DNA from: Patescibacteria group bacterium
Lineage (GTDB): Bacteria; Acidobacteriota; Aminicenantia; UBA2199
NCBI GenBank assembly: GCA_035528155.1
Contig: DATKZA010000014.1
Span: 419-64,418, forward strand
DNA length: 64,000 nucleotides
Reading direction: 5' to 3'
The translations under genes were made by a program, and so were the position numbers. Below the pieces are notes generated by a model, which saw only the letters and a list, made by a program, of their open reading frames with translations, had not been told where the DNA came from and did no database searches. Shown one piece after another: positions 8,335 through 53,414 of the stretch (within the stretch, counting starts at the first letter, position 1; the number at the start of each line of letters is the position of its first letter).

Positions 8335-9159
8335 ATGCCCGAACTGCCCGAAGTCGAAACCATCGTCCGCGAATTGCACCGGCATATTGTCGGCAAGACC
8401 GTCGTCGCCGTCCGCTTGCTTTGGCCGCGCTCGGTTGATGGTTCGAAGAGTGAATTCCGCCGCCGTCTGCGGGGCATGCACATCGCCGCCGTGTCCCGGC
8501 GCGGCAAGTATATCGGCCTGGAAAGCGAAGACGGGACTTTCTTTACCATTCATCTGCGCATGACCGGCAAATTGGTGCGGGAGCTGACCGCCCCGGACCG
8601 CAAGCACCTGCGCGTGCAATTCAGCTTCCGGGACGGCACGGCGCTCCATTTCGTCGATGCCCGCAAGTTCGGCCGTTTGCGCCTGTGGCCCTGCCGCGGC
8701 CAATCCTGCCCCGGCCTGGGCCCGGAACCACTGCGCCAATCAACCGTGCTGGCGGCGCTGCGCCCCCTGCGAACCACCCGGGCCATCAAAACCGTTTTGC
8801 TCGATCAGTCCGTATTGGCCGGCGTTGGCAATATCTATGCCGACGAGGCTTTGTTCGCGGCCGGGATCCATCCCCTGGTCCCGGCTGCCGCCTTGAACGA
8901 TGGGCAGCAAAAACGCTTGGCCCGCTCCGTGCCGCGGGTTTTGCGTCTGGCCATAGGCCGCCGCGGCACCACTCTGCGCGATTACCGCACCGTCGAGGAC
9001 CGCAGCGGCGAAAACCAGGAACATCTCAATGTTTATGGCCGCGCCGGGCAGCCGTGTTTCCGTTGCGGAACTCCGATCGAAAAAATTCGCATTTCCGGCC
9101 GTTCCTCCCACTTCTGCCCGCGCTGCCAGAAAAACACTTCAGTGACAAGTGACAAGTAA
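8335..9159 (+). CDS. mutM: Formamidopyrimidine-DNA glycosylase
   Basis: N-terminal MPELPEVETI (catalytic Pro2/Glu3), H2TH region and C-terminal zinc finger CFRCGTPI...FCPRCQ. Confidence 0.93.
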   Translation: MPELPEVETIVRELHRHIVGKTVVAVRLLWPRSVDGSKSEFRRRLRGMHIAAVSRRGKYIGLESEDGTFFTIHLRMTGKLVRELTAPDRKHLRVQFSFRDGTALHFVDARKFGRLRLWPCRGQSCPGLGPEPLRQSTVLAALRPLRTTRAIKTVLLDQSVLAGVGNIYADEALFAAGIHPLVPAAALNDGQQKRLARSVPRVLRLAIGRRGTTLRDYRTVEDRSGENQEHLNVYGRAGQPCFRCGTPIEKIRISGRSSHFCPRCQKNTSVTSDK

Positions 9160-9236
9160 CGAGTGACGAGGAAAGATAGCCGCATTAATTCGAGATCTTG
9201 CCGCTCCATGTCACTTGTCACTCGTCACTCGTCACT
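9141..9236. repeat. Inverted repeat made of degenerate heptamer units (xAGTGAC)n / (GTCACTx)n between convergent mutM and kinase genes
   Basis: Left arm AGTGACAAGTGACAAGTAACGAGTGACGAG (9141-9170). Right arm GTCACTTGTCACTCGTCACTCGTCACT (9210-9236). The loop is ~39 nt. The left arm supplies the last codons and the stop of mutM. Confidence 0.6.
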
Positions 9237-16731: not shown

Positions 16732-16813
16732 GCGGTTCGACTGGAAGGAAAGCCGTGCACGGCATCCTGGGCTCGATCTTCAAACGCCGCTGAGCTCGAA
16801 ACTCATCCCCCTG

Positions 16814-16890
16814 CCCCTTCTCTTGGCAAGAGAAGGGGAGAAGAGCGCTCCCCTCTCTTTTTGAAAGAGGGGGGTCGGGGCTGAGTTTTT
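16814..16890 (+). terminator. Two adjacent GA/CT-rich hairpins followed by a short T-run after the RND operon
   Basis: CCCCTTCTCTTG/CAAGAGAAGGGG at 16814-16838. An imperfect CCCCTCTCTTT...AAAGAGGGGGG at 16850-16874. TTTTT at 16886-16890. Confidence 0.4.
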
Positions 16891-22799: not shown

Positions 22800-24104
22800 A
22801 TGGAAATCCGCCACGATTTTTTCCCTCTTGCGGACAAACTGCGCCCGGAGCGCCTTGGCGAATTTGAAGGGCAGAACCACCTGACCGGACGCCAAAAGAT
22901 CGTTCAAGCCCTGGTGCAGAGCAAGAATCTCGCCTCCATGATCTTCTGGGGACCGCCGGGCACGGGCAAGACCACCCTGGCCCGCATCCTGGTCAGGGAA
23001 ACCGGCTACCCGGCCGCCGAGTTTTCGGCCACCGTCTCCGGAATCGCCGAGATCAAGAAAATCATGGAAAAATCCAAGGCTGCCCGCGCGGAGCGAGGCA
23101 AACCGCTGGTACTGTTCGTCGACGAGATCCATCATTTCAACCGCAGCGTCCAGGATGCATTTTTGCCGTACGTGGAGCGCGGCGATGTCATCCTGCTGGG
23201 GACCACAACCGAGAACCCGGCCTACAAGATCAACCGCGCCTTGCTTTCGCGCCTGAAGATCCTGGAATTGTTTCCTCTAAAAAATGAGCACCTGGCGCGC
23301 ATCCTGAATCGAGCCCTGGCCTTCCTCCATGAAAACGGCAGCGCCGATCTCCGTTTCACGCCCGAGGCCGAAGCCGTGCTCATCGGTTACAGCAACGGCG
23401 ACAGCCGCCGCTTGCTCAACCTGGTGGAGATTGTCTTCCAGACGGCGGACCACTCTGAAGCGGTGGGTGAAACATTCGTGCTCGATGTCATCCAGAACAA
23501 GGTGGCCGGCTATGACCGGAGCGGCGACGACCGCTACCAGTATATTTCCGCATTGCACAAGAGCGTGCGCAATTCCGACGTCGATGCCTCGCTGTTCTGG
23601 TTGTACCGCATGCTGGAAGGGGGCGAGGACCCGCTGTATATCCTGCGGCGCATGGTGCGCATGGCCGTCGAGGATGTCGGCCTGGCCGATCCCGATGCGC
23701 TGCGCCTCTGCCTGAACGCCAAGCAGGCCTACGAATTCCTCGGTTCTCCCGAAGGCGACCTGTTCCTGACCGAGGCGGCCGTCTACCTGGCCCTGGCCCC
23801 CAAAAGCAACGCCCTCTACGTGGCAGACAGCAAGATGAAGAAGATCTCCGAGAAATACAAGATGTTGCCCGTGCCCCTGCAGATCGTCAATCCCGACAAC
23901 TTTATCGCCGCCGGCAAAGGGGCCGGCAAGGATTACATTTACGCCCACGACCGCCCCGAAAAAACCTCGCTGCTCGAAACCCTGCCGGCGGGGATGAAGG
24001 AAAGGGGGTTCTATGAGCCCAACGATATGGGTTTTGAAAAGAACATCCGGCAGCGCCTGGCGTTCTGGCAGAAAATAAAAGACGAACTAAAGAAGAAGAA
24101 ATAA
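22800..24104 (+). CDS. rarA: Replication-associated recombination protein A (AAA+ ATPase)
   Basis: 434 aa with Walker A GPPGTGKTTLA, Walker B LFVDEIHHFN, and the MgsA C-terminal signature YISALHKSVRNSDVDASLFWL...GEDP. Confidence 0.9.
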   Translation: MEIRHDFFPLADKLRPERLGEFEGQNHLTGRQKIVQALVQSKNLASMIFWGPPGTGKTTLARILVRETGYPAAEFSATVSGIAEIKKIMEKSKAARAERGKPLVLFVDEIHHFNRSVQDAFLPYVERGDVILLGTTTENPAYKINRALLSRLKILELFPLKNEHLARILNRALAFLHENGSADLRFTPEAEAVLIGYSNGDSRRLLNLVEIVFQTADHSEAVGETFVLDVIQNKVAGYDRSGDDRYQYISALHKSVRNSDVDASLFWLYRMLEGGEDPLYILRRMVRMAVEDVGLADPDALRLCLNAKQAYEFLGSPEGDLFLTEAAVYLALAPKSNALYVADSKMKKISEKYKMLPVPLQIVNPDNFIAAGKGAGKDYIYAHDRPEKTSLLETLPAGMKERGFYEPNDMGFEKNIRQRLAFWQKIKDELKKKK

Positions 24105-24107
24105 GTT

Positions 24108-24400
24108 CTCGGTGTACGGTTGACGGTACACGGAAAAAAAAGACCAATTTCCAAGCACAAAATTCCATATAAGCACCAAGCACCAATGACCAAATGTCCC
24201 AAACGAAAAAAAGTGATAGTGCTGGTGGTAGTGATAGGAAGAAAATTATCGAAATCAATTGAATTTGAAAGAGCTTTTTGCTAACACTATCACTATCACT
24301 AACACTAACACTGATCTTTGTTTAAGATATTGGAACTTGGGATTTGTGATTTGGGATTTTACTCTTCCCGTCTACCGTCTGCCGTACACCGTCAACCGAG
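24108..24400. repeat. ~290-nt nested inverted repeat built from three different short-period (6-7 nt) tandem-unit families
   Basis: Outer arms are (xxxACGG)n at 24108-24133 against (CCGTxxx)n at 24368-24400. Middle arms are CCA-rich heptads at 24146-24203 against TTGGAACTTGGGATTTGTGATTTGGGATTTT at 24330-24360. Inner arms are (AGTGAT)n-like at 24212-24238 against (CTATCA/CTAACA)n at 24281-24313. Confidence 0.6.
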
Positions 24401-24443
24401 TGCTGATATTGTTTTTCGTTCTTTTTTGTGGTAAGTTTTGCAT

Positions 24444-24818
24444 ATGAACGTGCAAGTGACGCCGGCGGCTCTCGAGGAAATCGAGGTGCTACGGGCGACC
24501 GGCTACCGGGGGGCGGGATTTTTGCTGGGCACGACCATCGGCCGTTTTGTATTGATCGAGCAATTGCTGGCCGTCGATTTTGACCGTGTGAACGGCAGCA
24601 GCGTTTATGGAATAATCTGCAAAACATACCAACCCCGTCTGCAGGGTGTTTTCTTTTGCCGCAAACCGATGTTCGCCCTGGACTGGATTTTGCATGACCT
24701 GGTCATGGTTATAAAACGCGACCAGATTGAGATGCTCACCTGCGAATTTTCCGCTGCCAAGCACAAAGCCGTTCTGGCTCCTCTTATGGAGGACAAGGAG
24801 GGGGTATGGCCGATCTGA
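24444..24818 (+). CDS. Hypothetical protein (124 aa)
   Basis: ORF 24438..24818. The first ATG is at 24444. Its 3' end overlaps the AMMECR1 gene start by 13 nt and contains that gene's RBS. No family recognised. Confidence 0.45.
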   Translation: MNVQVTPAALEEIEVLRATGYRGAGFLLGTTIGRFVLIEQLLAVDFDRVNGSSVYGIICKTYQPRLQGVFFCRKPMFALDWILHDLVMVIKRDQIEMLTCEFSAAKHKAVLAPLMEDKEGVWPI

Positions 24819-25369
24819 CCGACCTGGAGAAAAAGGAGCTTTTGCGTCTGGCCCGGGGGACCATAAAAAAATTCCTGGCTAACGGGGAGCGCCAGAGCCC
24901 GCCCGAGGACCACCCTGCTTTTTCGGCGAAACGCGGGGTCTTTGTTACCCTGCACCGCCGCGGCGAGCTGCGCGGCTGCATCGGTTATCCCCTGCCTTAC
25001 AAGCCTCTGGGGGAAGCGGTCGTGGACAACGCCATCGCCGCCGCCAGCGAAGATCCCCGTTTTTCGACCGTCTCTGCGGATGAATTGCGGGAGATCGATA
25101 TCGAGATTTCGGTTTTGACCGTTCCCCAAAAAGTCGAAGGACCCGACCAGGTGCAGGTGGGCCGGGACGGCATCATCATCAGCAAGGGATTCCAGCGCGG
25201 CCTGCTGTTGCCCCAGGTACCGCTCGAGCAGGGTTGGGACCGGGAACAATATCTATCCTACGGCTGCCGCAAAGCCGGGTTGGCCGCGGACGAATGGAAA
25301 AGAGGCGTGCAGATCGAGGTTTTCCAGGCAACGGTTTTTGGAGAAAAGGCTATGGGGGTGGAACCATGA
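24806..25369 (+). CDS. AMMECR1-domain protein
   Basis: 187 aa. RGVFVTLHRRGELRGCIGYPLP and LLPQV are hallmark AMMECR1 motifs. Confidence 0.85.
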   Translation: MADLTDLEKKELLRLARGTIKKFLANGERQSPPEDHPAFSAKRGVFVTLHRRGELRGCIGYPLPYKPLGEAVVDNAIAAASEDPRFSTVSADELREIDIEISVLTVPQKVEGPDQVQVGRDGIIISKGFQRGLLLPQVPLEQGWDREQYLSYGCRKAGLAADEWKRGVQIEVFQATVFGEKAMGVEP

Positions 25370-25770
25370 GCGGCTATCGAACCATCGAGGTCAAGAGTAC
25401 GCAGAAAATCGAATTCATCGACATCACGCAGCAAGTCCGCGAGTTCGTGCGTGCGGCAAAGTGCCGGGAGGGCATGCTGCAGATCTTCAGCCCGCATACC
25501 ACGGCCGGCGTATCCATCAACGAGAACGCCGATCCTGACGTTCCCCGTGATATCGGTGAGTTTTTCAGGCACTTGCTGCCGGGGCAGGATTATTTCCGCC
25601 ACGCCGAGGGCAATTCGCCGGCACACATCCTTTCCAGCCTGGTGGGAGCGTCGGAAACCCTGGTCGTCCATAACGACGAGCCGCTCCTCGGCTCCTGGCA
25701 GGGGATCTTTTTCTGCGAGTTCGACGGCCCGCGCCAACGCCGAGTCTTCCTGAAGGTCATCCCCGGCTGA
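25366..25770 (+). CDS. yjbQ: YjbQ/UPF0047 family (secondary thiamine-phosphate synthase-like) protein
   Basis: MSGYRTIEVKSTQKIEFIDIT...SPHTTAGVSINENADPDV...GNSPAHI...G(S)WQGIFFCEFDGPR. I chose the internal ATG at 25366, which forms an ATGA overlap with the AMMECR1 stop. Confidence 0.85.
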   Translation: MSGYRTIEVKSTQKIEFIDITQQVREFVRAAKCREGMLQIFSPHTTAGVSINENADPDVPRDIGEFFRHLLPGQDYFRHAEGNSPAHILSSLVGASETLVVHNDEPLLGSWQGIFFCEFDGPRQRRVFLKVIPG

Positions 25771-25779
25771 GCCCGGACC

Positions 25780-26304
25780 ATGACCGAGCAAGCCGATCGC
25801 CATCCCCGCAGACGGCGCCGCTGGCCGTTCCTTTTTCTCCTGGCCCTGGCGGTAGTCTCGCTGCTGCTGCACGCCGCGAAATTACGCCGCCAAGGAGAGG
25901 TGCAGGGGCTCTGCGACCAAGAGGCCATGATGGCGGTCACCCGACCGGTGGAGAAGACCAAGGCCCAGCGCGCTCGTTTCTATCAGATCCGGTATTTTCT
26001 CGGCTATTCCATGGCCGCCTCGCATGCCACCGCCGACCTTGTGCGCCGCGTCAACGCCATCGTCGCCCCGCTGCGGCTGCTCGCCGTCCAGATTGACCCG
26101 GGCGTGCGCGATCTGGGCTTTGAGCTGGCGGTTGAGGTCGCCGGCGGCTCCAGGGAAGTGCGGCGGCGGCTCGCCGTTTTTCTTGAACGGCTGCGCAATA
26201 TCCACAACGTCACGCTGGCCGATCTTTCCAGGCCGGGTCCCACCGCCCGGGGCGGGGGAGTGCGCGTCTTCACCGTCAAAGGCCGGGCTGAGCTTCAACC
26301 GTGA
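25780..26304 (+). CDS. Hypothetical N-terminally membrane-anchored protein (174 aa)
   Basis: Arg-rich N-terminus followed by the TM helix WPFLFLLALAVVSLLLH. No family recognised. Confidence 0.45.
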   Translation: MTEQADRHPRRRRRWPFLFLLALAVVSLLLHAAKLRRQGEVQGLCDQEAMMAVTRPVEKTKAQRARFYQIRYFLGYSMAASHATADLVRRVNAIVAPLRLLAVQIDPGVRDLGFELAVEVAGGSREVRRRLAVFLERLRNIHNVTLADLSRPGPTARGGGVRVFTVKGRAELQP

Positions 26305-27149
26305 AAATGGGAAAACTGGCGTGCGTCCTGCTGCGGGTGCTGGCGGTGCTGGCCGTGCTGGCGGCTTTCGTGGCCCTGGACTGGTACCCCACGGTCAAGG
26401 AACTCGGCCTCCTGCGCCGCCAGCGGGGTGACCTGGAGCGGAAGATCGTGGAGTACGCCAGCATGGCCGCCAAGTTCAATTTCCCGGACCAGGCGGAGAG
26501 ATCGATTCTGGCAAACGCCAAGGCCGAATTGGATCGGGCGTTGCCGTTGGTTGAAAACGATGCGGCTTGGACGGCCATCGGTCTGGTGGATCTGCAGGCC
26601 CGAGCCAGGGAGGATCTCATTTCCCATGCCAGGTTTTTGTTCTACTGGCAAATCGATTCAACGAAACTCGGGACGGACGGTCCAGGGGGGAAGGATCCCC
26701 TGACCGGTTGGATCAGTCGGCAGTTTGTAAATATCCAGGACGGTTTCTCAATCGCTTTCGCTCCAGGCGGCTTTCCTTGGCACGAGGTTTTTTCCGGCTC
26801 GGAGTTCGGCCGCGGCCAATTGGCCAGTCGGCCGATGTGCATAATCGCCATGGCGCCGCTGCCGGCTCTGCTTGGCTTCATCAATCGCCTTTCCTGGGGC
26901 GAAGCCAGGTTGGAGATCGTCCGCCTGCGTCTGGAGCCCGGCATGCCACTTGCAAAAGCCTGGCTGGTCTGCCGTGGCAACTACCGGATAGCCGCTCCAT
27001 CCCCGTGGTTGGTTAAAACGGGGTATGGGAAGGGAGGCGAGAACCTGTTGGTCGACCCCGATTCGCCCCTGCTTTGGCAGAAGGTCGACCCGCTCCTGGC
27101 GCCTCGCGTTGAAAAAAAAGAGCTGCCGGCCGCCGGCAGCCCCTGGTAA
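26301..27149 (+). CDS. Hypothetical N-terminally membrane-anchored protein (282 aa)
   Basis: TM helix LACVLLRVLAVLAVLAAFVAL followed by a coiled-coil-like segment. Its start overlaps the previous gene's stop. No family recognised. Confidence 0.45.
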   Translation: MKMGKLACVLLRVLAVLAVLAAFVALDWYPTVKELGLLRRQRGDLERKIVEYASMAAKFNFPDQAERSILANAKAELDRALPLVENDAAWTAIGLVDLQARAREDLISHARFLFYWQIDSTKLGTDGPGGKDPLTGWISRQFVNIQDGFSIAFAPGGFPWHEVFSGSEFGRGQLASRPMCIIAMAPLPALLGFINRLSWGEARLEIVRLRLEPGMPLAKAWLVCRGNYRIAAPSPWLVKTGYGKGGENLLVDPDSPLLWQKVDPLLAPRVEKKELPAAGSPW

Positions 27150-27154
27150 ATGAC

Positions 27155-27607
27155 ATGCGCGTAGTGGTGCAAAGGGTTTCGCAAGCCAGCGTCGAAATTG
27201 ACGGCCGCACGGTCGGCCGCATTGGGACGGGACTCCTTTTGCTGGTCGGCATCGAAAAAGGGGACGGGGAAAAAGAGATTGAATTCATGGCCGATAAAAT
27301 TCTCAATTTGAGGATCTTTGCCGATGCCGACGGCAAGATGAACCTGAGCGTTCAGGAGATCAGGGGCGAGATCCTTTCTGTTTCACAGTTCACGCTGGCT
27401 TCCCGTATCAAAAAAGGGCGCCGGCCTGATTTTTCAGACGCCGAAGAGCCCGGCCGGGCCGAATTGCTGTATGAGCAGTTCAACCGCAAGCTGGCCGTCG
27501 TGGTGTCCGTAGCCACAGGGATTTTCGGGGCCATGATGGATATCCATTCGCTCAACCATGGCCCGGTGACCATCATATTAGAGAAAACCAAAGACGAACT
27601 TGGTTGA
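27155..27607 (+). CDS. dtd: D-aminoacyl-tRNA deacylase
   Basis: 150 aa. MRVVVQRVSQASVEIDG...GLLLLVGI...SQFTL...GRRP.F...A...FGA.M...L.N.GPVT, the classic Dtd pattern. Confidence 0.92.
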   Translation: MRVVVQRVSQASVEIDGRTVGRIGTGLLLLVGIEKGDGEKEIEFMADKILNLRIFADADGKMNLSVQEIRGEILSVSQFTLASRIKKGRRPDFSDAEEPGRAELLYEQFNRKLAVVVSVATGIFGAMMDIHSLNHGPVTIILEKTKDELG

Positions 27608-27708
27608 CGGTTTACGGTAGACGGCGTACGGCAACCGCAAGATGATGAACTAGATCATGCTATTGAATTTTGTGTTTGCCTTCTACCGTCTGCCGTCCGC
27701 CGTATGCC
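27603..27708. repeat. Inverted repeat of (xxxACGG)n / (CCGTxxx)n heptads, same family as 24108/24368
   Basis: Left arm GTTGACGGTTTACGGTAGACGGCGTACGGCA (27603-27633) contains the dtd stop codon. Right arm TTGCCTTCTACCGTCTGCCGTCCGCCGTATGC (27677-27708). The 14-nt string CTACCGTCTGCCGT is identical to 24373-24386. Confidence 0.55.
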
Positions 27709-27722
27709 TGGGAAAAGGCGAG

Positions 27723-27755
27723 CCCCCCCCATGTAGCGGGGGGGGTGTTTTTTTT
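27723..27755 (+). terminator. Rho-independent terminator after dtd
   Basis: An 8-nt C run, a 7-nt loop ATGTAGC, an 8-nt G run, then TGTTTTTTTT. Confidence 0.75.
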
Positions 27756-27798
27756 AGGTGGGAGTTATGATTATATAAAGGGGGGAGAGATGGAAAGG

Positions 27799-28053
27799 CT
27801 AATTGATGTCCGCATTTTTTGTTTTTTTATTTTCAGGTTTTTTCGCAGGAGCGCTTTTTTCCTCGCTGCCGCCGCTGTTTTTGTAGTCGGTAATATACCA
27901 GCCCTTGCCCTTGAACTGGAAAGAACTCAGTGAAATGATCTTTTTGGATTTGCCCCGGCAATAGATGCATTTGCTGATTGGTTCAGCCGTGATGCTCTGC
28001 AGGGCTTCAAAGGTCTTTCCGCATTTTGAGCATCTGTATTCATAAATCGGCAT
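27799..28053 (-). CDS. FmdB-family zinc-ribbon protein
   Basis: MPIYEYRCSKCGKTFEALQSI......CIYCRG is the family signature. The ATG at 28053 lies 8 nt after a GGAGG. Confidence 0.8.
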   Translation of the reverse strand: MPIYEYRCSKCGKTFEALQSITAEPISKCIYCRGKSKKIISLSSFQFKGKGWYITDYKNSGGSEEKSAPAKKPENKKTKNADIN

Positions 28054-28163
28054 ATCCATTTCCTCCGAATAATTTTTTATAGCATACTTGCTGTTGGCTG
28101 TCAATGAAAAAATCAAAGAATCTTTCTTGGAATTGCCAGCGTCTAAATTGTTGGCAAGGAGAA

Positions 28164-28192
28164 TTGAATTTTATGAAGAAATATGCTATAAA
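28164..28192 (+). promoter_or_regulatory. Sigma70-like promoter upstream of bamA
   Basis: TTGAAT (28164-28169), a 17-nt spacer, then TATAAA (28187-28192). Confidence 0.35.
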
Positions 28193-28224
28193 ATTACATT
28201 CAGTCCATTTTTTACGAGGTTGTC

Positions 28225-30537
28225 ATGCTTAAAAAACTGCCGTTGCTGGTGATGGTATTGTTGGGCACGCAATTTTTGGGTGCCGATATCATCCAAAAAA
28301 TTCAAGTTGAAGGCAACAAAAAGGTCTCACGCGAAACCATTCAATTTTATATGAAGTCACGTGAGGGCGGTGTGTATGATGCGCAAAAACTGAAGGATGA
28401 TTTCAAGGCCCTGTGGGAAACCGGTTTTTTTAATGATATCCGCTTTGAATCGGAAAATGGCGACAGTGGAAAGATCGTGCGTCTGATCCTGGCGGAAAAT
28501 CCGTTGATTTCTTCCGTGACCTACAAAACCGGAAAAAAAGTAAAGGAAAGTGATATTGTTGAAAAACTGCAGAACAGCAACATCATCCTGCAGGCTTTTT
28601 CTTATTACAGTCCGGCCAAGATCCGCAAGGTAAAAAAGATCATCACCGACATGCTGCTGGAAAAGGGCTACAACCAGGCAGCGGTCACCATCGACGAAAA
28701 GAAAGAAAACGAACAGGTCGCTCTGACCATCCAGGTCGATTCGGGTTCCAAAACCAGGATCGCCAGCGTAGTGTTCCCCGGGCTTACCAAGAAATCGGTT
28801 TCCCCCGGTTTTTTGCGTCGGGGTATGAAGAACAACCAGACTCACAATATCTTTTCCCATATCGGCGGCAAGGATGTCTACAACAATGAGAAGATAAACG
28901 AAGACCTGGAGGAGATCCGGCTGCGCTTGCAGCAAAAAGGCTATCTTGAGGCCAAGATCGGGACCCCTGAATTCAGCATGATCAACAAGAAGACCGTTTT
29001 CGGCAAGCTGCAGAAAATGCTCAAGATCAGCATCCCCGTGGATCTCGGCCCGCGCTACCGGGTGGGAAATATTGCCCTGGAAGGCAACAAGATCATTCGC
29101 AGTGATTTTTTAAAAAGCCTGATTACCATTAAAAGCGGTCAGGTCTACAACATCAAGAAGCGCAACAAGTTCATCGAGGAGATACAGAAGTTCTATGGCG
29201 GCATCGGCTATTTTTATGCACAGGTCGTGCCGAGCGAAAATCTGGACCCGGTCAAGCAGACGGCCGATCTGACCATCAATATCCAGGAAAATGATGTTGT
29301 TTACCTTGGCAAGCTCGAATTCACCGGTAACACCTTTACCAAAGACCATGTCATTCGCCGCGAATGGTTCCTGCGCGAAGGCCGGCGCTTGAACATCAAC
29401 TCCCTGGAGGATTCTATCAAGCGCATGAAACAATTGGGCCTGGTCACCGTCGAAAAAATGCCCGACATCAAGGCTGATCCACAGGATCCGCAGAAAATAA
29501 ACATCACCGCTGAAGTCAAGGAACTGAATCGGCAAATGATCAATTTCAATGTCGGCTACAGCGGTTATGAGGGTTGGTTCGTCGCTTTGGGTTATTCGAC
29601 CCAGAATTTTCTGGGCATGGGCGAATCGTTCACCCTGAACCTGCAAAGCGGCACCCGGGCCAAGAACTACCAGTTCGCTTTCGTTGAGCCTTATCTGTTC
29701 AATTTGCCGGCCAATTTCGGCATTGACATCTTCAAAACCTCATACCGCTATCCCTACATGTATACCCGCGAAGGAGAAGGCTTCAACATTTCCACTTCGG
29801 CCCGTTTCTGGAAATATTGGGGCACATCGATTATTTATAGTATGGAAAATATTTCGATCAGCGACATCTATGAAGATTATCAATTTATGAATTCTTATGC
29901 TTCCTATTATTATTCCGAGGGCAAGAGAAGAATTTCCGCATTGGCACCCACCTTATATTACTCCACGGTGGATTCGCCCATATTCCCCAGTTCCGGCAGC
30001 AAATTCCTGGCCACTTACCGCTATTCCGGTGGTTTCCTTGGCGGGGACATCAATCTGCACAAACTGAAATTAGAGCTGGTCAGGTTCCAGCCCATATGGA
30101 AAAGGCACGTGCTGGGTATACATGCCATGTATGAAGGCTTGGCGCCGTTCGGCGGCCGGGCAACTCCTTTTTATGAAAGGTTTTTCTTGGGCGGCGAACG
30201 TTCCATTCGCGGTTTTGACATTTACAATCTCGGCCCCCGCGACAAGAACGGCAATGTTGTTGGCGGCAATAAATCTTTTTTACTCAACTTTGAATACGCC
30301 ATCCCCCTGACCCAGCAATTTTCCTTTGTCTTTTTCTATGATGTCGGCAACTCTTATGAAGTCGGCATGCCCATTAAACTGAAAGATGTCTATTCATCAG
30401 CGGGACTTGAACTGAAAATATTCGTGCCCATGCTCAACGTACCCTTCCGCCTGATCTTCGCCTACAATCCCAGAATCCTGAGAAGCGAGGACCAGCATTT
30501 TGTCTTTAAATTCGCCGTAGGGCCATCATTTTATTAA
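28225..30537 (+). CDS. bamA: Outer membrane protein assembly factor BamA (Omp85, POTRA repeats + beta-barrel)
   Basis: 770 aa with a signal peptide, I..I.V.GN..V POTRA starts, a barrel with FFLGG.RS.RGF, and a C-terminal ...FAVGPSFY. Confidence 0.92.
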   Translation: MLKKLPLLVMVLLGTQFLGADIIQKIQVEGNKKVSRETIQFYMKSREGGVYDAQKLKDDFKALWETGFFNDIRFESENGDSGKIVRLILAENPLISSVTYKTGKKVKESDIVEKLQNSNIILQAFSYYSPAKIRKVKKIITDMLLEKGYNQAAVTIDEKKENEQVALTIQVDSGSKTRIASVVFPGLTKKSVSPGFLRRGMKNNQTHNIFSHIGGKDVYNNEKINEDLEEIRLRLQQKGYLEAKIGTPEFSMINKKTVFGKLQKMLKISIPVDLGPRYRVGNIALEGNKIIRSDFLKSLITIKSGQVYNIKKRNKFIEEIQKFYGGIGYFYAQVVPSENLDPVKQTADLTINIQENDVVYLGKLEFTGNTFTKDHVIRREWFLREGRRLNINSLEDSIKRMKQLGLVTVEKMPDIKADPQDPQKINITAEVKELNRQMINFNVGYSGYEGWFVALGYSTQNFLGMGESFTLNLQSGTRAKNYQFAFVEPYLFNLPANFGIDIFKTSYRYPYMYTREGEGFNISTSARFWKYWGTSIIYSMENISISDIYEDYQFMNSYASYYYSEGKRRISALAPTLYYSTVDSPIFPSSGSKFLATYRYSGGFLGGDINLHKLKLELVRFQPIWKRHVLGIHAMYEGLAPFGGRATPFYERFFLGGERSIRGFDIYNLGPRDKNGNVVGGNKSFLLNFEYAIPLTQQFSFVFFYDVGNSYEVGMPIKLKDVYSSAGLELKIFVPMLNVPFRLIFAYNPRILRSEDQHFVFKFAVGPSFY

Positions 30538-38183: not shown

Positions 38184-39062
38184 ATGCGCGTCGTCGCTCC
38201 TTACGATTTGTTCTTTATTGTTTTATATGCCTTGCTGATTCCCGCAGTCGGTGTGTTGGTTTTTTGCATGACCGGCCGGGCCGTGGTACTGCCCCTCCTG
38301 CTGTTACTGGAGGCCCTTTACCTGATGCTGGCACTCAGAAAACCATGGCAACGCCGCCTGGGGTTGCGAACGTCTTTTCCCGATGAATGGCGTGAATTTT
38401 TGCTTTCCCGCTCGGCCTATTTTTACGGTCTGGACGAGGACGGCAGAATGCGATTTGAGCGCGATGTCCGCCTGTTCCTCGTCGACGTTCGCATCACCGG
38501 CATCGGGGGACGGCCCCTTTCCTGGCCGACCCGCTTGCTCATCGCCGCCGGGGCTGCGGCCATGCTGCACGGCCGGCCCGATTGGGAGCCGCCGCTCGCC
38601 GATGGCGTTACGGTATATCCCGGCATGAGTTTTGACCGCAATTATCAGGTAAAAAAGGGAAACATTGCCGGACAAGCCCCTGCGGGGGGACCGATGCTGC
38701 TCACCGAGGGAAGTCTGATGCAGGGATTTGCCGATGCCGAAGACGGCTTCAATGTCCTGATTCACGAACTGGCCCACTTTTTTGACCGGGAAGCGAGAAA
38801 GAGCGGGCTGAAATTGCGGCTGCAGTCGGGGACGGTTGCCTGGGCCGAGACCATGGCCCGGGAATGGCAGCGGCACGACCACGGGGCCTCGATCCTGCCC
38901 GCTTACGCCGCCCAGAATGAGGCCGAATTCTTTGCCGTGGCCAGTGAAATGTTCTTTGAAAATCCCCGGCCGCTCCATGACGCCCATCCCGGACTTTTTG
39001 AAATACTGCGGGAGTTCTACCAGCAGGACCCGCGGCAGGTTCTGGCCAGCCGGCCCGTATAA
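38184..39062 (+). CDS. M90-family (MtfA-like) zinc metallopeptidase with N-terminal TM segments
   Basis: HELAHFFD (HExxH) and EFFAVASEMFFE are typical of MtfA/M90. Confidence 0.7.
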   Translation: MRVVAPYDLFFIVLYALLIPAVGVLVFCMTGRAVVLPLLLLLEALYLMLALRKPWQRRLGLRTSFPDEWREFLLSRSAYFYGLDEDGRMRFERDVRLFLVDVRITGIGGRPLSWPTRLLIAAGAAAMLHGRPDWEPPLADGVTVYPGMSFDRNYQVKKGNIAGQAPAGGPMLLTEGSLMQGFADAEDGFNVLIHELAHFFDREARKSGLKLRLQSGTVAWAETMAREWQRHDHGASILPAYAAQNEAEFFAVASEMFFENPRPLHDAHPGLFEILREFYQQDPRQVLASRPV

Positions 39063-39146
39063 ATCCAGCCGCAGCATAAAGCATTTGAAAGTTTATTATA
39101 AATAAACAATTTGTCTGAATTTACGCAAACAATTCACATCCGTTAA

Positions 39147-39207
39147 TTGCAATTTCAAAAAAATATCCTTAAAATAATATTATAGGGGAAACTTATTTTC
39201 ATTTGAG
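39147..39207 (+). promoter_or_regulatory. Island element copy A (promoter-like boxes + degenerate palindrome)
   Basis: TTGCAA (39147-39152), a 17-nt spacer, TAAAAT (39170-39175), then GGGGAAACTTATTTTC (39185-39200). Lies 32 nt upstream of the OmpA-like ATG. Confidence 0.5.
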
Positions 39208-39238
39208 TTAACTTGATAGAAAAAGGAGGGAGAATATA

Positions 39239-40078
39239 ATGAAAAAGAATGTTTTTATTATTTATTGCTTTTGTTTATTCGTACTTTCGGTAACACCCGT
39301 TCTGTCCCTTGCCCAGGAAGATGTGCCGGGCAGCAAAGATCATCCAATTCTTACGCGAATGCCCAGCTTCTACATCTCAGACTATCAATATAAGGAATTT
39401 GACCAGGCCGATTTCAAAAATGATAAGGGGGAGGATATTAAGATTGAAGGCCACAAATATCACATTGAATATGAAATCAAGAAAGACAGGAGGGCTCCGA
39501 GTGAACTTCAAATTTTAAGAAACTATGAAAATGCTATAAAAAAAATAGGAGGTTCGATTCTTTATGAAGCTCCAGGAGAAACATGGCTCAAGGTGGAAAC
39601 GGGCGGAAAAATAACGTGGATTTATATATATGCGCATTCTGAGGGAGAATCATATGAAGTGGCGATTGTAGAGAAAAAGGCAATGGCGCAGGAAGTCGTT
39701 GCCGATGCAAAAAGCCTGGCAAGGGATATCCGCTCGACCGGGCATGTATCTGTTTATGGTATCTACTTTGACTTTAATGAAGCCACGGTTAAGCCAGAGT
39801 CCGAGTCGACGCTGAAGGAGATTGCGAAACTTCTAAAAAATGAACCTGAGCTAAATCTGTACGTGGTCGGGCACACTGATGGTGTGGGGAAAACTGCTTA
39901 CAATATGAAACTTTCCCTGGCACGGGCTGAAGCTGTTGTAAGAGTCCTGGTAACAAAGTATGAGGTGGCTCAGAACAGGCTTGATTCTTATGGAGTGGGC
40001 CCCTTGAGCCCTGTAGCTTCCAATGAGACCGAGGAAGGCCGAGCAAAAAACAGACGGGTTGAGTTGGTTAAAGAATAG
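39239..40078 (+). CDS. OmpA-family protein: signal peptide + N-terminal domain (DUF4892-like) + OmpA C-terminal peptidoglycan-binding domain
   Basis: 279 aa. GSKDHPILTRMPSFYISDY resembles the DUF4892 start. The C-terminus FDFNEATVKPES...VGHTDGVG...YNMKLSLARAEAV...GRAKNRRVELV is a canonical OmpA_C domain. Confidence 0.85.
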   Translation: MKKNVFIIYCFCLFVLSVTPVLSLAQEDVPGSKDHPILTRMPSFYISDYQYKEFDQADFKNDKGEDIKIEGHKYHIEYEIKKDRRAPSELQILRNYENAIKKIGGSILYEAPGETWLKVETGGKITWIYIYAHSEGESYEVAIVEKKAMAQEVVADAKSLARDIRSTGHVSVYGIYFDFNEATVKPESESTLKEIAKLLKNEPELNLYVVGHTDGVGKTAYNMKLSLARAEAVVRVLVTKYEVAQNRLDSYGVGPLSPVASNETEEGRAKNRRVELVKE

Positions 40079-40087
40079 TCGATATGA

Positions 40088-42073
40088 ATGGTGGTTATTA
40101 TGAATAAAATAAAGTTTTTTTTCCCAGCTCTGCTGTTTTCTTTATTGTTCAGCATATCTTTTATAGCATTTGCAACTTCCGGTGATGGATGTGATGGCTG
40201 TAAGAGAGATGCGGTACTTAAGAAAGCCATTGGTCTGGACAAGGACTGGGCTGCGGAATACAACCGGTTAAAAAATTGGGTTTCAAAGAACTTCGATGAG
40301 CCCGAAGGAGAGCCAAACCAGTTAGAGCCCTATATCCGCTGGATGGGTATCAAGGCCAAGGACAGAGACGAAGTCAAAGCCCTCCTGGAAGAAGTGAACC
40401 GCCTGAGTTATCTCAATCCCAAGGACAAAGCTCTGGAACAATGGACACAAAAGTTCTTTTATCTCCAGGAACTGGCACAGGGCTCGGGAATATCGACGGT
40501 AAACGGCGCCTGTATGAAGTTCATGCGCTTGAGAAGCCCGCTATTCCCAAAGATTGCAAACTGGAAGGAGCTTATTTGGAGGCTGCAGAGGTATGGAAGA
40601 GTTATTTATACAAAAGCCCAGGAAACGGCTTTCGTTAGTCCCATGATCAAAGGATATGCAAAATGTTTGATCAATTTTTCCATTCGGGATGTGGAAGGTG
40701 ATCCGTATGGTTTTGGTGTTTATCGGGATCGTGAAGGACTTTTCGGCTATATGGACGAAGAGGGGTTTCTTAACATCCCAGATCGCGATTTCACAACGGA
40801 CTGTGAAAGACGAGGAGAATTCACGCTGACATCAAAAGGGGAGCCTGCCCAGCCCACGGATATTGGCCTGGACTGGATAGAAAAGGTACGAGAAGAAGCC
40901 AAATGGTGGCAGCTTGCCGGGGAGTATTCTGATGCCACGGATTTGATGAATGAGTTTTTCGAGGATTCCATGTGTAAAAGCCCACCCAACACGCCCGGAC
41001 AAGGACACAAGAATTTTTATGGCAAACAGGCCCTGAAACACAGCCTGCAAAAATCCATAGATTATAATGACGGCTTTTACGGCATTGTATACGGCAAAGT
41101 GGAAATAGAGACCAGTGAAGGCAGGACCCCGGCCGGATATGCCACCGTCAAAGTCACTGACCCCCATGACAAGAAGACATGGGAGACGGAAGCCGACAGT
41201 GAAGGAAATTACGAGATCAAGGATGTCATTCTCCACAAAGACTGCTCTCCTTTTACGATCACAGCCGCATCCGGCATAGACAAGGTCATCGATCAATATG
41301 ACGGTCCTCTGGAAAAGCCTGACCGATCTTACCGTTATAAAAAGAATTTGGTAATCCGCAAATCACCTGTATCTGCTAGGATTACTTTAACATCGGAAAC
41401 GACAACCAAAGCAGATGGTACAATAAATTTCCCGGGAGAGGGAGAGAGGAAGACAATTGTTAAGGACAATAGTTATAAAATCATAAGTGTAACAATATTA
41501 GCTAATTTTGAAGAAAAACCGGAGGTTGATTTCGACGATCAACTAAAAGTCATAGGTTACAATTATAAAATAACTAACTATAAGGTAATTTCAGAGACCT
41601 ACAGTGACGAAGGCACGTTTTATGAAGCTCAGTACGATGCTGCTGGCCGTCTCCGGGTAGAATCAACGAGCAAAACTACACGGAGCGGGACATCAACAAA
41701 AATAGAGCTTCAATCAATTGAAAGTAATACAATGTCGCTGGATGTGGATAAAACGACGGGCAAGATAAACTATGTAGATTTTCCTTTTTTTGATGTAATG
41801 TTCATAGTTAATAGCAATTCCCAGACAACTGGCAGAAAAGAGTCATCAATAGGCAACTACGACCCTATTAACATTAGCGACACAAAATCATATGATAATG
41901 AGTTTTCGGTTCAATCAGGTTCAGGTTCACGGCTAAAAGTGCTTAATGGAGACGGCGTGCATTTTATTTCGGGAAAGTATGTTGATGAACATACAACGGT
42001 AGACAACCAAGATACAAGAACAAGAACAGAGAAAGTTACATATCAGTGGGAGGTTAGAATACAAAAAAAATGA
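40088..42073 (+). CDS. Secreted 661-aa protein of unknown function with an internal carboxypeptidase-regulatory-like (CarboxypepD_reg) beta-sandwich
   Basis: Signal peptide (alternative start at 40100, MNKIKFFFPALLF...AFA). YGKVEIETSEGRTPAGYATVKVTDPHDKKTWETEADSEGNYEIKDV (~41080-41270) is a textbook CarboxypepD_reg pattern. The rest is unrecognised. Confidence 0.7.
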   Translation: MVVIMNKIKFFFPALLFSLLFSISFIAFATSGDGCDGCKRDAVLKKAIGLDKDWAAEYNRLKNWVSKNFDEPEGEPNQLEPYIRWMGIKAKDRDEVKALLEEVNRLSYLNPKDKALEQWTQKFFYLQELAQGSGISTVNGACMKFMRLRSPLFPKIANWKELIWRLQRYGRVIYTKAQETAFVSPMIKGYAKCLINFSIRDVEGDPYGFGVYRDREGLFGYMDEEGFLNIPDRDFTTDCERRGEFTLTSKGEPAQPTDIGLDWIEKVREEAKWWQLAGEYSDATDLMNEFFEDSMCKSPPNTPGQGHKNFYGKQALKHSLQKSIDYNDGFYGIVYGKVEIETSEGRTPAGYATVKVTDPHDKKTWETEADSEGNYEIKDVILHKDCSPFTITAASGIDKVIDQYDGPLEKPDRSYRYKKNLVIRKSPVSARITLTSETTTKADGTINFPGEGERKTIVKDNSYKIISVTILANFEEKPEVDFDDQLKVIGYNYKITNYKVISETYSDEGTFYEAQYDAAGRLRVESTSKTTRSGTSTKIELQSIESNTMSLDVDKTTGKINYVDFPFFDVMFIVNSNSQTTGRKESSIGNYDPINISDTKSYDNEFSVQSGSGSRLKVLNGDGVHFISGKYVDEHTTVDNQDTRTRTEKVTYQWEVRIQKK

Positions 42074-42244
42074 AACTTTCGCAGGCAAGGGCCAAGGCAG
42101 TTATAAAAGCCCTGGTAACAAAGCATGGAGTGGCTCAGAACCGTCTTGATCCCTATGGAGTGGGCCCCTTTGAGCCCTGTGGCCTCCAACGAGACCGATG
42201 AAGGGCGAGCAAAAAACAGACGGGTGGAGTTGGTTAAACAGTAA
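42070..42244 (+). pseudogene. Remnant of a second OmpA-like C-terminal domain (paralogous to 39906-40078), frameshifted
   Basis: Nucleotide-level similarity runs from ATGAAACTTTC... through ...GCAAAAAACAGACGGGT(T/G)GAGTTGGTTAAA. An extra T in GGCCCCTTTGAG shifts the frame. Only the last ~57 codons of an OmpA domain are present. Confidence 0.65.
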
Positions 42245-42257
42245 ACAGGAGGCAATC

Positions 42258-42848
42258 ATGTTCAAAAAAGCTGTATTAGCGGGATTCATAATCCTGACGT
42301 TTTCCAATTATACAGGAATTGTATATGGAAAGGGGGAAACAACAGGCTATTTGCAGATTATTTATAAAAGCTGTGAATGTGGGATGACTAAGCCCCATGT
42401 ATTCAGCTGTTATGCCCCTTTTTCTATAAAAGGCAATAAAATAATCGGAGATTTTGAAATTCCAGAAGATGCCAAAATGTACCTTCCCGTTGTCCCGATT
42501 GACCCTGCTGATCGTGATTCTTCCGATTTTGAAAAACAAATTATCGTGTATTCGTACAAATGCCCTCCAGTAGATGAGGACTGTCCCCCACCGGATGTTA
42601 ATGGCCAACTAAACGTTCATAAGGTAAGTGGCGAGGTCGTTAAAATTAAAGGAAAAAAAATGCTGCATTTTGTGATAAGACTTTCTATTCCATATTGCAC
42701 TGTGAATGTATGTGGTCACGTGGCTGATCGTTCAATGGAACCCTGGTCTGATGAGTTTCTGGCCCCATTCCAAGACGGTTATCGTACAGAGCGAGGTGAA
42801 AATGTAATGTTTATTTACGTAGTTAATCTTCAGGCGGACCCAAAATGA
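42258..42848 (+). CDS. Secreted Cys-rich hypothetical protein (196 aa)
   Basis: AGGAGG lies 5 nt upstream of the ATG at 42258. Signal peptide MFKKAVLAGFIILTFSNYTGIVYG. 9 Cys in total. No family recognised. Confidence 0.6.
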   Translation: MFKKAVLAGFIILTFSNYTGIVYGKGETTGYLQIIYKSCECGMTKPHVFSCYAPFSIKGNKIIGDFEIPEDAKMYLPVVPIDPADRDSSDFEKQIIVYSYKCPPVDEDCPPPDVNGQLNVHKVSGEVVKIKGKKMLHFVIRLSIPYCTVNVCGHVADRSMEPWSDEFLAPFQDGYRTERGENVMFIYVVNLQADPK

Positions 42849-42871
42849 TACACTGCTTCGCAAAAAGCACA

Positions 42872-42934
42872 GTGCAATTTCAATAAAAATTTTCTTAAAA
42901 TCCCAGCATGAGACAAATTGATTTTCCTATATAT
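42872..42934 (+). promoter_or_regulatory. Island element copy B
   Basis: GTGCAA (42872-42877), an 18-nt spacer, TAAAAT (42896-42901), then ATGAGACAAATTGATTTTCCTATAT. It opens a 43-codon ORF (42908-43039) that ends 21 nt before the DUF502 gene. Confidence 0.45.
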
Positions 42935-43060
42935 GAAGCAGACCTGGTATTTCATGGTAATGATACCGGTATGACTGGGGCTTTTCCCCGAAAAATACCG
43001 AAGCAAACGGTTGATTCCGTCTTCGATATTGTTCGGTAAAAAATTTTAGGGGGAACCAAA

Positions 43061-43660
43061 ATGAAAAAGATCAAAAATTTTATTAAAACGACTCTTTTTG
43101 GAGGATTACTTGTTATCCTTCCCATCGTTCTTACTTTTTTTCTTATAAGGTGGATATTTAATATTGTTTCGGGAATGATAGAACCCTTGACCATGTTGAT
43201 AATGAAACAACCGCATATGCGAAAGATTATTGCGGATATCATCTCCGTGGTTCTGATAATCGTGGTCTGCTTTGTGATCGGCTTGATCGTAAAGACAAAA
43301 ATAGGTAGATATTTATTTGCTGAGATCGATAATCATATCCTAAAAATTGCTCCGGGTTATTCATTATTCAAGGAAACATTGAAGCAACTTGTGGGTCAGG
43401 AAAAGAAACCTTTCTCTTCAGTGGTTCTGGCAAGAATATTCGGCAGCGATACACTTATGACCGGTTTTGTTACCGATGATCACCCGGACGGCAGGTATAC
43501 GGTCTATTTCCCCTCGGCGCTTAACCCCACAACCGGGCTTTTGTGTCATTTGAAAAAAGAGGATGTCCGGATAATCGATGTTTCCGTAGAGACGGCAATG
43601 AGGTCGATCATCAGCTGCGGGGTGGGATCAGCCAAGCTGTTTGAAAAGTTGAAACAATAA
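43061..43660 (+). CDS. DUF502-family membrane protein
   Basis: 199 aa. The N-terminal LFGGLLVILPIVLTFFLIRWIF and a second TM helix resemble the DUF502 topology and signature. Confidence 0.7.
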   Translation: MKKIKNFIKTTLFGGLLVILPIVLTFFLIRWIFNIVSGMIEPLTMLIMKQPHMRKIIADIISVVLIIVVCFVIGLIVKTKIGRYLFAEIDNHILKIAPGYSLFKETLKQLVGQEKKPFSSVVLARIFGSDTLMTGFVTDDHPDGRYTVYFPSALNPTTGLLCHLKKEDVRIIDVSVETAMRSIISCGVGSAKLFEKLKQ

Positions 43661-43781
43661 ATTTTGACAAATTTGGCTTAAAGCAAATTTGTACAACCGA
43701 ATCCAGAATCGTTATTGCATAACTGTACCAGGACGCCTGCCGGCGGTTCAAACAAACAAGTCAAGCACGGTTAAAACGATC

Positions 43782-43845
43782 TTGCAATTTCAATACAATT
43801 TCCTTACACTATCATCATGGGGAAAATTGAGTTTCCTATAAGTTC
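43782..43845 (+). promoter_or_regulatory. Island element copy C
   Basis: TTGCAA (43782-43787), a 17-nt spacer, TACACT (43805-43810), then ATCATCATGGGGAAAATTGAGTTTCCTATAAGT. A 13-codon mini-ORF runs 43817-43858. Confidence 0.5.
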
Positions 43846-43882
43846 AAATCATTCCTGACGACTGAAGAAAGGGGGAGAAATT

Positions 43883-45838: not shown

Positions 45839-45880
45839 CAAGACGTTCGATCGATTTGGGCTTACAATTCGCATCGTTTA

Positions 45881-45945
45881 TTGCAATTTCACTAAAATTC
45901 CCTTAAAATTCCATCATAGGGAAAATTAATTTTCCTATAAGTCGA
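45881..45945 (+). promoter_or_regulatory. Island element copy D (best-preserved; perfect 16-bp palindrome)
   Basis: TTGCAA (45881-45886), a 17-nt spacer, TAAAAT (45904-45909), then the palindrome GGAAAATTAATTTTCC at 45920-45935. Confidence 0.55.
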
Positions 45946-46010
45946 GCTGGTTGCCGGCGGATTGGCGATTGCGAATGAAAGTCGGCAACAAATACTTAGG
46001 AGGCCCATCT

Positions 46011-46457: not shown

Positions 46458-46494
46458 GCACATGTTTCCCTTTGATCAAAGTGCGGGAGGAAAA

Positions 46495-46532
46495 TCGAAT
46501 CATAATGGGTAAAATTAATTTTCTTAAAAGTT
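46495..46532 (+). repeat. Island element copy E (3' half only), containing the start codon of the next gene
   Basis: ATCATAATGGGTAAAATTAATTTTCTTAAAAGT aligns with copies C and D. No TTGCAA/-10 part is present upstream. Confidence 0.5.
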
Positions 46533-53330: not shown

Positions 53331-53360
53331 GCCAATCGGAACAATAGCCGATTGAAACGC

Positions 53361-53414
53361 AGGCCGACCGCAGCTCCGGGTTAAAGACGGAGCCCGGTCG
53401 GCCTGTTTCTTTTC
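53361..53414 (+). terminator. Long GC-rich hairpin followed by a T-rich tract
   Basis: AGGCCGACCG..GCTCC...GGAGC.CGGTCGGCCT followed by GTTTCTTTTC. Confidence 0.6.

Follow-up and report, generated by a model that had tools for sequence, protein, structure and literature searches.

What occupies the gap behind rarA in a 64,000-nucleotide stretch of contig DATKZA010000014.1 (assembly GCA_035528155.1, positions 419 to 64,418 of the forward strand; hereafter the window), and how did it come to be there? The gap holds an imperfect palindrome of 293 bp at 24108-24400, in which three concentric arm pairs are built from tandem units of 6-7 nt. A sequence-only reading of the window had singled out this nested design, likened it to the STRR repeats of heterocystous cyanobacteria, and suggested that it could act as a terminator or insulator, an RNA-stability element or a recombination hotspot. 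Our best reading is that it is a compound member of a dispersed family of hairpin-forming tandem repeats, each made of two inverted arrays of 6-7-nt units, usually with the purine-rich array on the 5′ side on either strand. We further think, with a probability of about 0.55, that these elements are dispersed, self-renewing repeat DNA that is tolerated in 3′ flanks, made by general replication and recombination, and not kept by selection.

The first arm starts 4 nt downstream of the rarA stop codon (TAA, 24102-24104, + strand; open reading frame 22800-24104), and Pfam RuvB_N, AAA and MgsA_C are recorded for a protein identical to this RarA. The outer left arm (24108-24133) opens with a terminal CTCGG unit followed by (xxxACGG)3, reading CTCGG TGTACGG TTGACGG TACACGG. 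Its partner, (CCGTxxx)4 at 24367-24400, reads CCCGT CTACCGT CTGCCGT ACACCGT CAACCGAG and ends in CCGAG; the same sequence is present in the related locus L001 and decayed in L022, and the ACGG/CCGT core is invariant in the outer arms of the window. An A8 run (24134-24141), lying opposite a T-rich stretch at 24361-24366, separates this layer from the middle one, in which CCAA-type heptads at 24142-24204, partly periodic and longer than their partner, face (TTGGxxx)4 at 24330-24360. The inner layer, preceded by an A7 run, is made of hexamers, AGTGAT AGTGCT GGTGGT AGTGAT AGG at 24212-24238 against (CTAACA/CTATCA)5 at 24281-24312, with TTTGTTT following; the apical loop between them (24239-24280) holds a small internal palindrome, TCGAAATCAATTGAATTTGA. 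Each layer is flanked by an A-run on its 5′ side and a T-rich run on its 3′ side. Tandem Repeats Finder reports period 6 with 5.3 copies at 24281-24312 and period 7 with 3.3 copies at 24337-24359, 4.4 copies at 24368-24398 and 2.3 copies at 24171-24186. The coordinates and anatomy given in the sequence-only reading hold, including the degeneracy of the arms.

The fold itself is well beyond chance. As RNA, the + strand of 24100-24410 reaches -107 kcal/mol where its dinucleotide shuffles give -61.9 +/- 5.1 (z -8.8, 0/100 as good); the - strand reaches -104.7 kcal/mol (z -8.3), and DNA parameters give z -6.1. When single layers were folded as arm, GAAA and arm against shuffled arms (n=300), the outer and inner pairs each stood out alone, with z -6.6 and -6.4 and 0/300 shuffles as good in both cases, whereas the middle pair, with unequal (63 vs 31 nt) and partly periodic arms, was marginal (z -1.7, 16/300 as good). 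Of the three pairs claimed, two are thus significant by themselves, while the third draws on its homology to the well-paired CCAA-type hairpins of L002, L013, L022, L023 and L005. Two independent assemblies from other samples, both encoding an identical RarA, are 100% identical to the window over 356 bases around the spacer, which rules out an assembly artefact; the hairpin is real and stable at strain level. No match to Rfam covariance models was found, at an E-value of up to 1 over 23000-29000 or at gathering score over the whole window, and a scan for tRNA and tmRNA found none.

Similar repeats recur elsewhere in the window, so that neither of the two conditions under which the sequence-only reading would have been refuted, a fold no better than shuffles or a lack of such repeats at other places, holds. 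A second heptamer hairpin, (AGTGACN)4 ... (GTCACTN)4 at 9141-9236 (z -7.5), lies in the 87-nt gap between the convergent fpg (+) and a Ser/Thr kinase gene (-), with the fpg stop codon falling within its first units. A third, (GGTNNAC)4 ... (CCGTNNN)4 at 27602-27708 (z -6.6), directly follows dtd, the stop codon of which (TGA) is inside the first unit; this hairpin and the outer right arm of the rarA spacer (24371-24385), both of the ACGG type, have TCTACCGTCTGCCGT in common. These three spacers (rarA, fpg and dtd) are the only ones with a period-7 signal among the 20 intergenic gaps of 50-700 nt in the window. There is also a partnerless single-arm array on the - strand at 57080-57109, GGGAAAC GGGAAAC CGGAGAC CGGAGTC, which coincides with the last codons of an ABC ATPase open reading frame and is apparently translated as the C-terminal tail of this transporter ATPase, just before the start of the next gene.

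The same signal extends across the lineage. The RarA relatives at 79-94% identity come from metagenome-assembled genomes labelled mostly Candidatus Aminicenantes, with some Acidobacteria or Chrysiogenales, which agrees with the earlier remark that the gene content is not cyanobacterial. A count over the window together with the Aminicenantes loci gave 26 runs of period 7 vs 1.3 in shuffles, an excess of ~20-fold, and none of period 8. Nearly all are intergenic, starting at, overlapping or lying within a few nucleotides of stop codons, and in this Aminicenantes-like lineage the elements fill the small non-coding gap directly behind them. Copies at 2-3 loci per genome were seen in samples of ~20-64 kb of each genome. 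More distant relatives, with RarA ~60-69% identical, have no period-7 run in non-coding DNA and a single run inside an open reading frame. Genomes in which RarA is at least 79% identical to that of the window are rich in hairpins, whereas the relatives L014-L020, L025 and L026 are free of them.

Orthologous rarA spacers were compared and folded from the stop codon to a conserved block before the ATG of the next gene, a distance of between 29 and 301 nt. All three layers of the window are present in L022 and two layers in L002; L001 and L013 keep the CCGT right arm, the left arm being replaced by an AGTGACN array and a GTAG-tagged hairpin. Arms of the ACGG type are found in L003 and L021, AGACGTT units in L006, CGTGACG units in L008 and L009 and a CTGACA hexamer in L012, while GTAGGGGCG ... 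CGCCCCTAC is the sole hairpin of L004, and L010 and L024 have remnants only. Units in this one spacer are therefore ACGG, GTGAC, AGACGTT, CTGACA or none, according to the genome, and orthologues also differ by insertions and deletions of whole units. Most of these spacers fold better than shuffles, with z from -2 to -12. Decay is apparent in some genomes, where the hairpin does little or no better than shuffles (L022, z -3.3; the dtd loci of L010 and L021, z about 0). Arms are swapped, deleted or replaced between genomes that are ~20% diverged at synonymous sites, and among the roles proposed from the sequence-only reading a recombination hotspot fits best.

Elements also recur at loci that are not orthologous. 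The 218-nt hairpin behind rarA in L021 aligns with the hairpin behind dtd in L024 and with a hairpin beside an MFS transporter gene in L060, at a mean column identity of 81%; the L060 metagenome contig has no RarA, Dtd, BamA, Fpg or AMMECR1 homologue. L013 and L022 each have a CCAA-type hairpin with the core CCAATGACCCAAAC ... GTTTGGGTCATTGG behind rarA and again behind dtd, and the hairpin also occurs in L023 and L005. The AGTGACN left arm of the L001 and L013 rarA spacers matches the arm at the fpg locus of the window with 86-89% identity. Relative to L002, the window and L022 have the loop of the CCAA hairpin replaced by an A-run, the hexamer hairpin and a T-rich run, and from this alignment the layering looks like hairpins landing in the loops of others. 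The dtd hairpin of the window lacks the CCAA layer and keeps a remnant of the TTGG arm, which points to a deletion and not to an empty site.

These observations raise the alternative that the elements are nested, non-autonomous mobile elements similar to MITEs (miniature inverted-repeat transposable elements) or REPINs, moved by a dedicated enzyme, such as a hairpin- or single-stranded DNA-specific transposase, that targets hairpin loops. Full-length homologues at three unrelated loci, a conserved terminal unit (CTCGG ... CCGAG, forming inverted ends), a fixed internal polarity, the replacement of the loop between the window and L002 and the co-occurrence of GTAG-tagged, REP-like hairpins in relatives are all in keeping with it. 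The same data can, however, be explained by ectopic recombination between loci that share arm types, and neither target-site duplications nor sharp insertion boundaries were seen; the one filled/empty comparison, at the dtd locus of the window, resembles the deletion just described. No transposase appears among the genes annotated, which comprise 20 window proteins and 8 locus proteins scanned against Pfam, and each of the many unit types would need to be recognized. We regard a dedicated mobile element as improbable. The GTAG-tagged palindromes are G+C-rich and REP-like, and the GTAGGGGCG ... CGCCCCTAC sequence represents them at L001:11360, L004:11302, L013:8427, L005:19679-20295 and L108:117-168; they are sometimes inserted inside heptamer hairpins, are clustered in L005, and none is present in the window.

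Could the arms have arisen by purely local slippage and fallen into complementarity by chance, or through faulty assembly? Short tandem units are prone to slippage, and the whole-unit differences between orthologues are of the kind that slippage leaves. A census of period-7 arrays that used no pattern, run over all loci collected, returned 58 inverted heptamer pairs of many unit types. At the three variable positions of the unit, the two arms of one locus agree at 80%, vs 37% for arms taken from different loci, and in L009 the agreement between arms is up to 100%. Arms that match even at variable positions, shuffles of which 0/100 and 0/300 fold as well, the same elements at unrelated loci and a sequence identical in three assemblies together refute slippage with chance complementarity or an artefact, and we give this explanation next to no credence.

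A more serious alternative is that the hairpins are selected RNA elements, serving as a modular bidirectional terminator or insulator, or as a stabilizer of 3′ ends, for which any long stem behind the stop codon is favoured and the sequence is free to turn over. The folds are very stable, the elements always lie 3′ of at least one gene (see the strand calls below), most close orthologues carry a hairpin, and apart from the hairpins nothing resembling a terminator is present in the rarA and fpg/kinase spacers. The A-run and T-rich run around each layer in the window also recall a bidirectional terminator. Canonical intrinsic terminators have a short G+C-rich stem, a loop of 3-8 nt and a U-tract 0-2 nt after the stem. 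The heptamer hairpins share with them the position of a stem-loop 3′ of a gene and the A-rich 5′ and T-rich 3′ flanks of each layer, but their stems are of 25-100 bp with periodic mismatches, their loops are of 14-400 nt and there is usually no U-tract at the base of the stem. Terminator and sigma-70 consensus scans called neither a terminator-like site nor a sigma-70 promoter within 24108-24400, and a T-run lies within 18 nt of the 3′ arm in only 4/47 heptamer hairpins. The suggestion that the rarA element is a terminator thus fails for the canonical kind.

The dtd locus provides the clearest contrast. There, a canonical intrinsic terminator with a G+C stem and T8 (27722-27755, +) lies downstream of the heptamer hairpin, placing the hairpin inside the 3′ untranslated region and upstream of the terminator. 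The terminator, GCCCCCCCCATGTAGCGGGGGGGG plus T-run, is kept in all sequences read (the window, L010, L013, L021, L022, L023 and L024), and the heptamer region ahead of it is scrambled among the same relatives. Hairpin and terminator are followed by bamA at 28225. Another textbook intrinsic terminator is found at 53360-53410 (CAGGCCGACCG ... CGGTCGGCCTG followed by TTTCTTTTC), and the real terminators of this organism are accordingly short G+C stems with a T-run. In the rarA spacer it is likewise the neighbouring sequence that is conserved: a block at 24406-24443 (+), ATATTGT ... TGgTAAGTT, which separates the hairpin from the next gene's ATG, does not vary in 5 close relatives and can still be recognised in more distant ones. 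Its position and motif suggest a promoter (extended -10) or a leader; the sigma-70 consensus scan did not call it as a promoter. Variable hairpins beside a conserved terminator and a conserved promoter-like block contrast with functional elements, and this supports the view that the hairpins themselves are tolerated repeats.

The substitutions within the stems tell the same story. Structure conservation was compared between the window and L022, using the 98 base pairs of the fold derived from the window: 55/98 are unchanged, 8 are kept through a change (2 of them compensatory), 22 are broken and 13 are gapped. The two sequences differ at 19% of paired columns and 12% of unpaired columns, and at 23% of four-fold sites in rarA, so that the stems, by the comparison of 19% with 23%, drift at about the neutral rate, with most changes breaking pairs. 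Spacers folded on both strands have about equal sense and antisense energies, with either strand ahead, and no sense-strand advantage from G-U pairing, looked for as a sign of RNA-level selection, was detected. On these measures sequence evolution shows no sign of selection for structure. Since, in addition, L004, L010 and L024 have remnants only or no heptamer hairpin, we consider a selected RNA element unlikely, while placing it first among the alternatives.

How far does the family extend, and what governs its orientation? A metagenome scan with the pattern CGG(NNNACGG)3YAAG matched at least 120 stretches, of which 82 were read. An inverted CCGT partner lies downstream in 24 of these 82, across loops of 14-418 nt, and shuffled queries gave none; among the matches listed, contig G+C ranges from 0.36 to 0.75. 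Arrays in the metagenome ACGG hairpins mostly contain 3-5 units, and a CTCGG or CTTGG unit opens 49/183 ACGG arrays. In viral contigs, inverted heptamer pairs are present in both polarities, with 10 partners downstream and 11 upstream, although the pattern used there had 15 fixed bases and many matches may be chance. The IMG/VR contigs L157, L162, L193, L206, L225, L237 and L261 carry inverted arrays of the ACGG type, some of them CCGT ... ACGG with almost no loop.

Polarity is apparent in the pairs that were not selected by the metagenome pattern, where the 5′ arm is the more purine-rich in 27/33. The polarity among the pattern matches (24 partners downstream vs 1 upstream) was discounted, as the YAAG suffix may itself select it. 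Position relative to genes is equally skewed. With strands called strictly, from stop-free frames and G+C at third codon positions, the 24 confident calls comprise 16 tandem, 8 convergent and 0 divergent spacers, and 3 divergent ones are uncertain; a cruder call by longest open reading frame had given 9 'divergent' cases, none of them confident under the stricter rule. In many cases the stop codon of the upstream open reading frame falls within the first units of the 5′ arm, and with purine-rich units (TGACGG, TAAACGG and GTGACA, for example) 21 nt are enough to close all three reading frames. We propose that stops in every frame may act as the filter that produces the polarity.

The prevalence of period 7 could also suggest that the arrays are periodic sites for a protein with a single-strand RNA or DNA footprint of ~7 nt, for example an OB-fold or cold-shock-type protein, which would open or close the hairpin to regulate 3′-end formation. 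For CspB, binding of a single protein to each heptamer is reported (PMC4679880), and differences between units are confined to few columns, 2.68 vs 3.91 by chance in 25/25 arrays. We do not take the latter as proof of constraint, however, as duplication of variant units gives the same pattern, concentrating differences in few columns. Against such a protein stand the dozens of unrelated units, even within one hairpin, the hexamer arrays in the same structures and the failure to identify a candidate, and we hold it to be very unlikely. The rivals that remain are, in descending order, selection as a terminator or insulator, movement as a dedicated mobile element, and binding by a heptamer-specific protein.

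If the hairpins are self-renewing repeats, a sequence of ordinary events may have made them. Whole units would be added or removed by slippage, as the whole-unit differences between orthologues imply. One arm would serve as the template for the other, through inverted duplication or through template switching within a strand, mechanisms to which the observed match between arms points. Elements or half-elements would be copied between loci that share arm types, which is how we understand the homology between non-orthologous loci, and new hairpins would land in the loops of old ones, giving rise to the concentric layers, as the comparison of the window with L002 suggests. Between such events the stems would be left to decay at the near-neutral rate observed. 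The rarA element has the rarA stop codon on one side and the conserved start region of the following gene on the other, so that it probably becomes part of a 3′ untranslated region on transcription, and the transcript would fold into an interrupted stem of ~100 bp that may incidentally block 3′ exonucleases or impede read-through as a side effect. The location behind stop codons would then be simply what a compact genome allows, a reading prompted by hairpin-free orthologues, in which ~30-45 nt separate the stop codon from the conserved block that precedes the next gene.

Several points weigh against this explanation. Most close relatives have a hairpin of one kind or another in this spacer, and a hairpin of any sequence could therefore be under selection; new hairpins are found in loops and not in arms, as expected if the outer stems mattered. 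The purine-5′/pyrimidine-3′ polarity (27/33) and the 0/24 divergent spacers need a filter. Neither a transposase nor a target-site duplication was identified, nor any other mechanism of copying, and the structure-conservation result comes from one well-aligned pair of genomes with the structure derived from the window. A bolder idea is that the hairpins form a class of elements, so far undescribed, that propagate themselves and are widespread among uncultured bacteria, with arms of heptamer arrays, fixed polarity, defined ends, insertion into loops, dedicated machinery and, in the lineages that carry them, a modular bidirectional role at 3′ ends or as insulators. In that case CTCGG ... CCGAG would be the ends of the ACGG family and period 7 the footprint of the machinery; we think this doubtful.

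Other features of the window stand apart from the heptamer hairpins. Two adjacent hairpins at 16800-16890, CCCCTTCTC ... GAGAAGGGG and CCCCTCTCTTT ... AAAGAGGGGGG, follow a gene ending at 16731, and similar motifs are present in metagenome contig L051. A low-G+C island at 39000-47300 (~35-48% vs 55-65% elsewhere), with an OmpA-family gene, a DUF502 protein and two proteins of 651-661 aa without Pfam match, may be foreign DNA. Within the coding region of a CARDB-domain protein, a 123-nt tandem repeat at 50874-51235 (~3 copies, 82-89% matches) encodes a Cys-rich 41-residue repeat.

It remains to place the family among known systems, beginning with the STRR repeats to which it had been likened. 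These are direct arrays in heterocystous cyanobacteria, defined by specific units and by taxon; the units are reportedly CCCCAGT, TTGGTCA and CAACAGT, a description attributed to Mazel et al. 1990. The likeness is one of design, in that both are non-coding arrays of tandem heptamers and a single genome has several families of units. It does not extend to membership: near-matches to dimers of STRR1, STRR2 and STRR3 number 0, 2 and 0 in the 64-kb window, the arms of the rarA family are paired, nested and inverted behind stop codons where STRR arrays are direct, and the nearest relatives are genomes labelled mostly Candidatus Aminicenantes or Acidobacteria, not heterocystous cyanobacteria. Three tandem heptanucleotides in Calothrix PCC 7601 are cited in PMC4692102. 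The direct TAACTGA heptamers of Beggiatoaceae, some Cyanobacteria and Bacteroidetes (MacGregor 2015, PMC4679880) are likewise intergenic, carry stop codons in forward-orientation units and have a patchy phylogenetic distribution. They immediately precede start codons, are direct in all but one of 170 sets, in which they are inverted, and have a proposed role in translation (PMC4679880), whereas the rarA family consists of inverted pairs behind stop codons.

REP, BIME and REPIN sequences are described (PMC3116915, PMC3733652) as extragenic dispersed hairpins, inverted doublets of which form larger ones; they are regarded as selfish DNA that may incidentally affect termination and the stability of mRNA. 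Each REP is an imperfect palindrome of 20-40 nt with a GTAG or CGTC tag and an associated RAYT (Y1) transposase. The rarA family is similarly extragenic, hairpin-forming and dispersed. Its arms, however, are tandem heptamers that are not themselves palindromic and lack the GTAG tag; no GTAGGGG[CT] sequence occurs in the window, and no RAYT was identified among the 28 proteins scanned against Pfam. The true GTAG-tagged hairpins that lie beside heptamer hairpins in relatives are a separate element.

The closest described system is that of the inverted heptamer repeats of Xanthomonas, GGGAATC or (GGGANTN)n (Rehm et al. 2015, PMC4692102), which are intergenic tandem heptamers, most often of ~4 units, with conserved and free positions. 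Each genome has 70-75 cases of two convergent arrays able to form stem-loops; they lie ~28 nt from the upstream open reading frame, far nearer than to the next one, and are rare between divergent frames. The same sites hold very different lengths and sequences in close species, and the repeats are transcribed, their function being unknown (PMC4692102). Elements of the rarA family likewise have tandem 7-nt units with conserved and free positions in inverted arrays able to form a stem-loop, and they too are intergenic, adjoin the 3′ end of the upstream reading frame and are absent from confident divergent spacers. Xanthomonas, however, has one G-tract unit type with G-quadruplex potential, where many types occur here (ACGG, GTGAC, CCAA, AAAAGG and hexamers); tracts of three or more G are absent, the units of the rarA hairpin having at most GG and none of its three layers having four GGG tracts. 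In addition, the rarA-family arrays are stacked concentrically, belong to a different phylum and recur as whole elements at non-orthologous loci.

That heptamer repeats are in excess in the intergenic DNA of bacteria has been noted since 2007, and neither this excess nor the inverted pairs of Xanthomonas have an accepted origin or function (PMC4692102); our literature search found no paper on such repeats in Aminicenantes. For annotation, we would treat these elements as marks of gene ends that often supply the stop codon, and would not call them terminators, CRISPR-like arrays or small RNAs. They make testable the question of whether such repeats are selected 3′-end signals or self-renewing junk shaped by slippage and template switching. 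Beside the systems described above, what is new here is another lineage, several unit families in one genome, arm pairs stacked concentrically, whole elements at unrelated loci, a purine-first polarity, and hypervariable hairpins lying next to perfectly conserved terminators.

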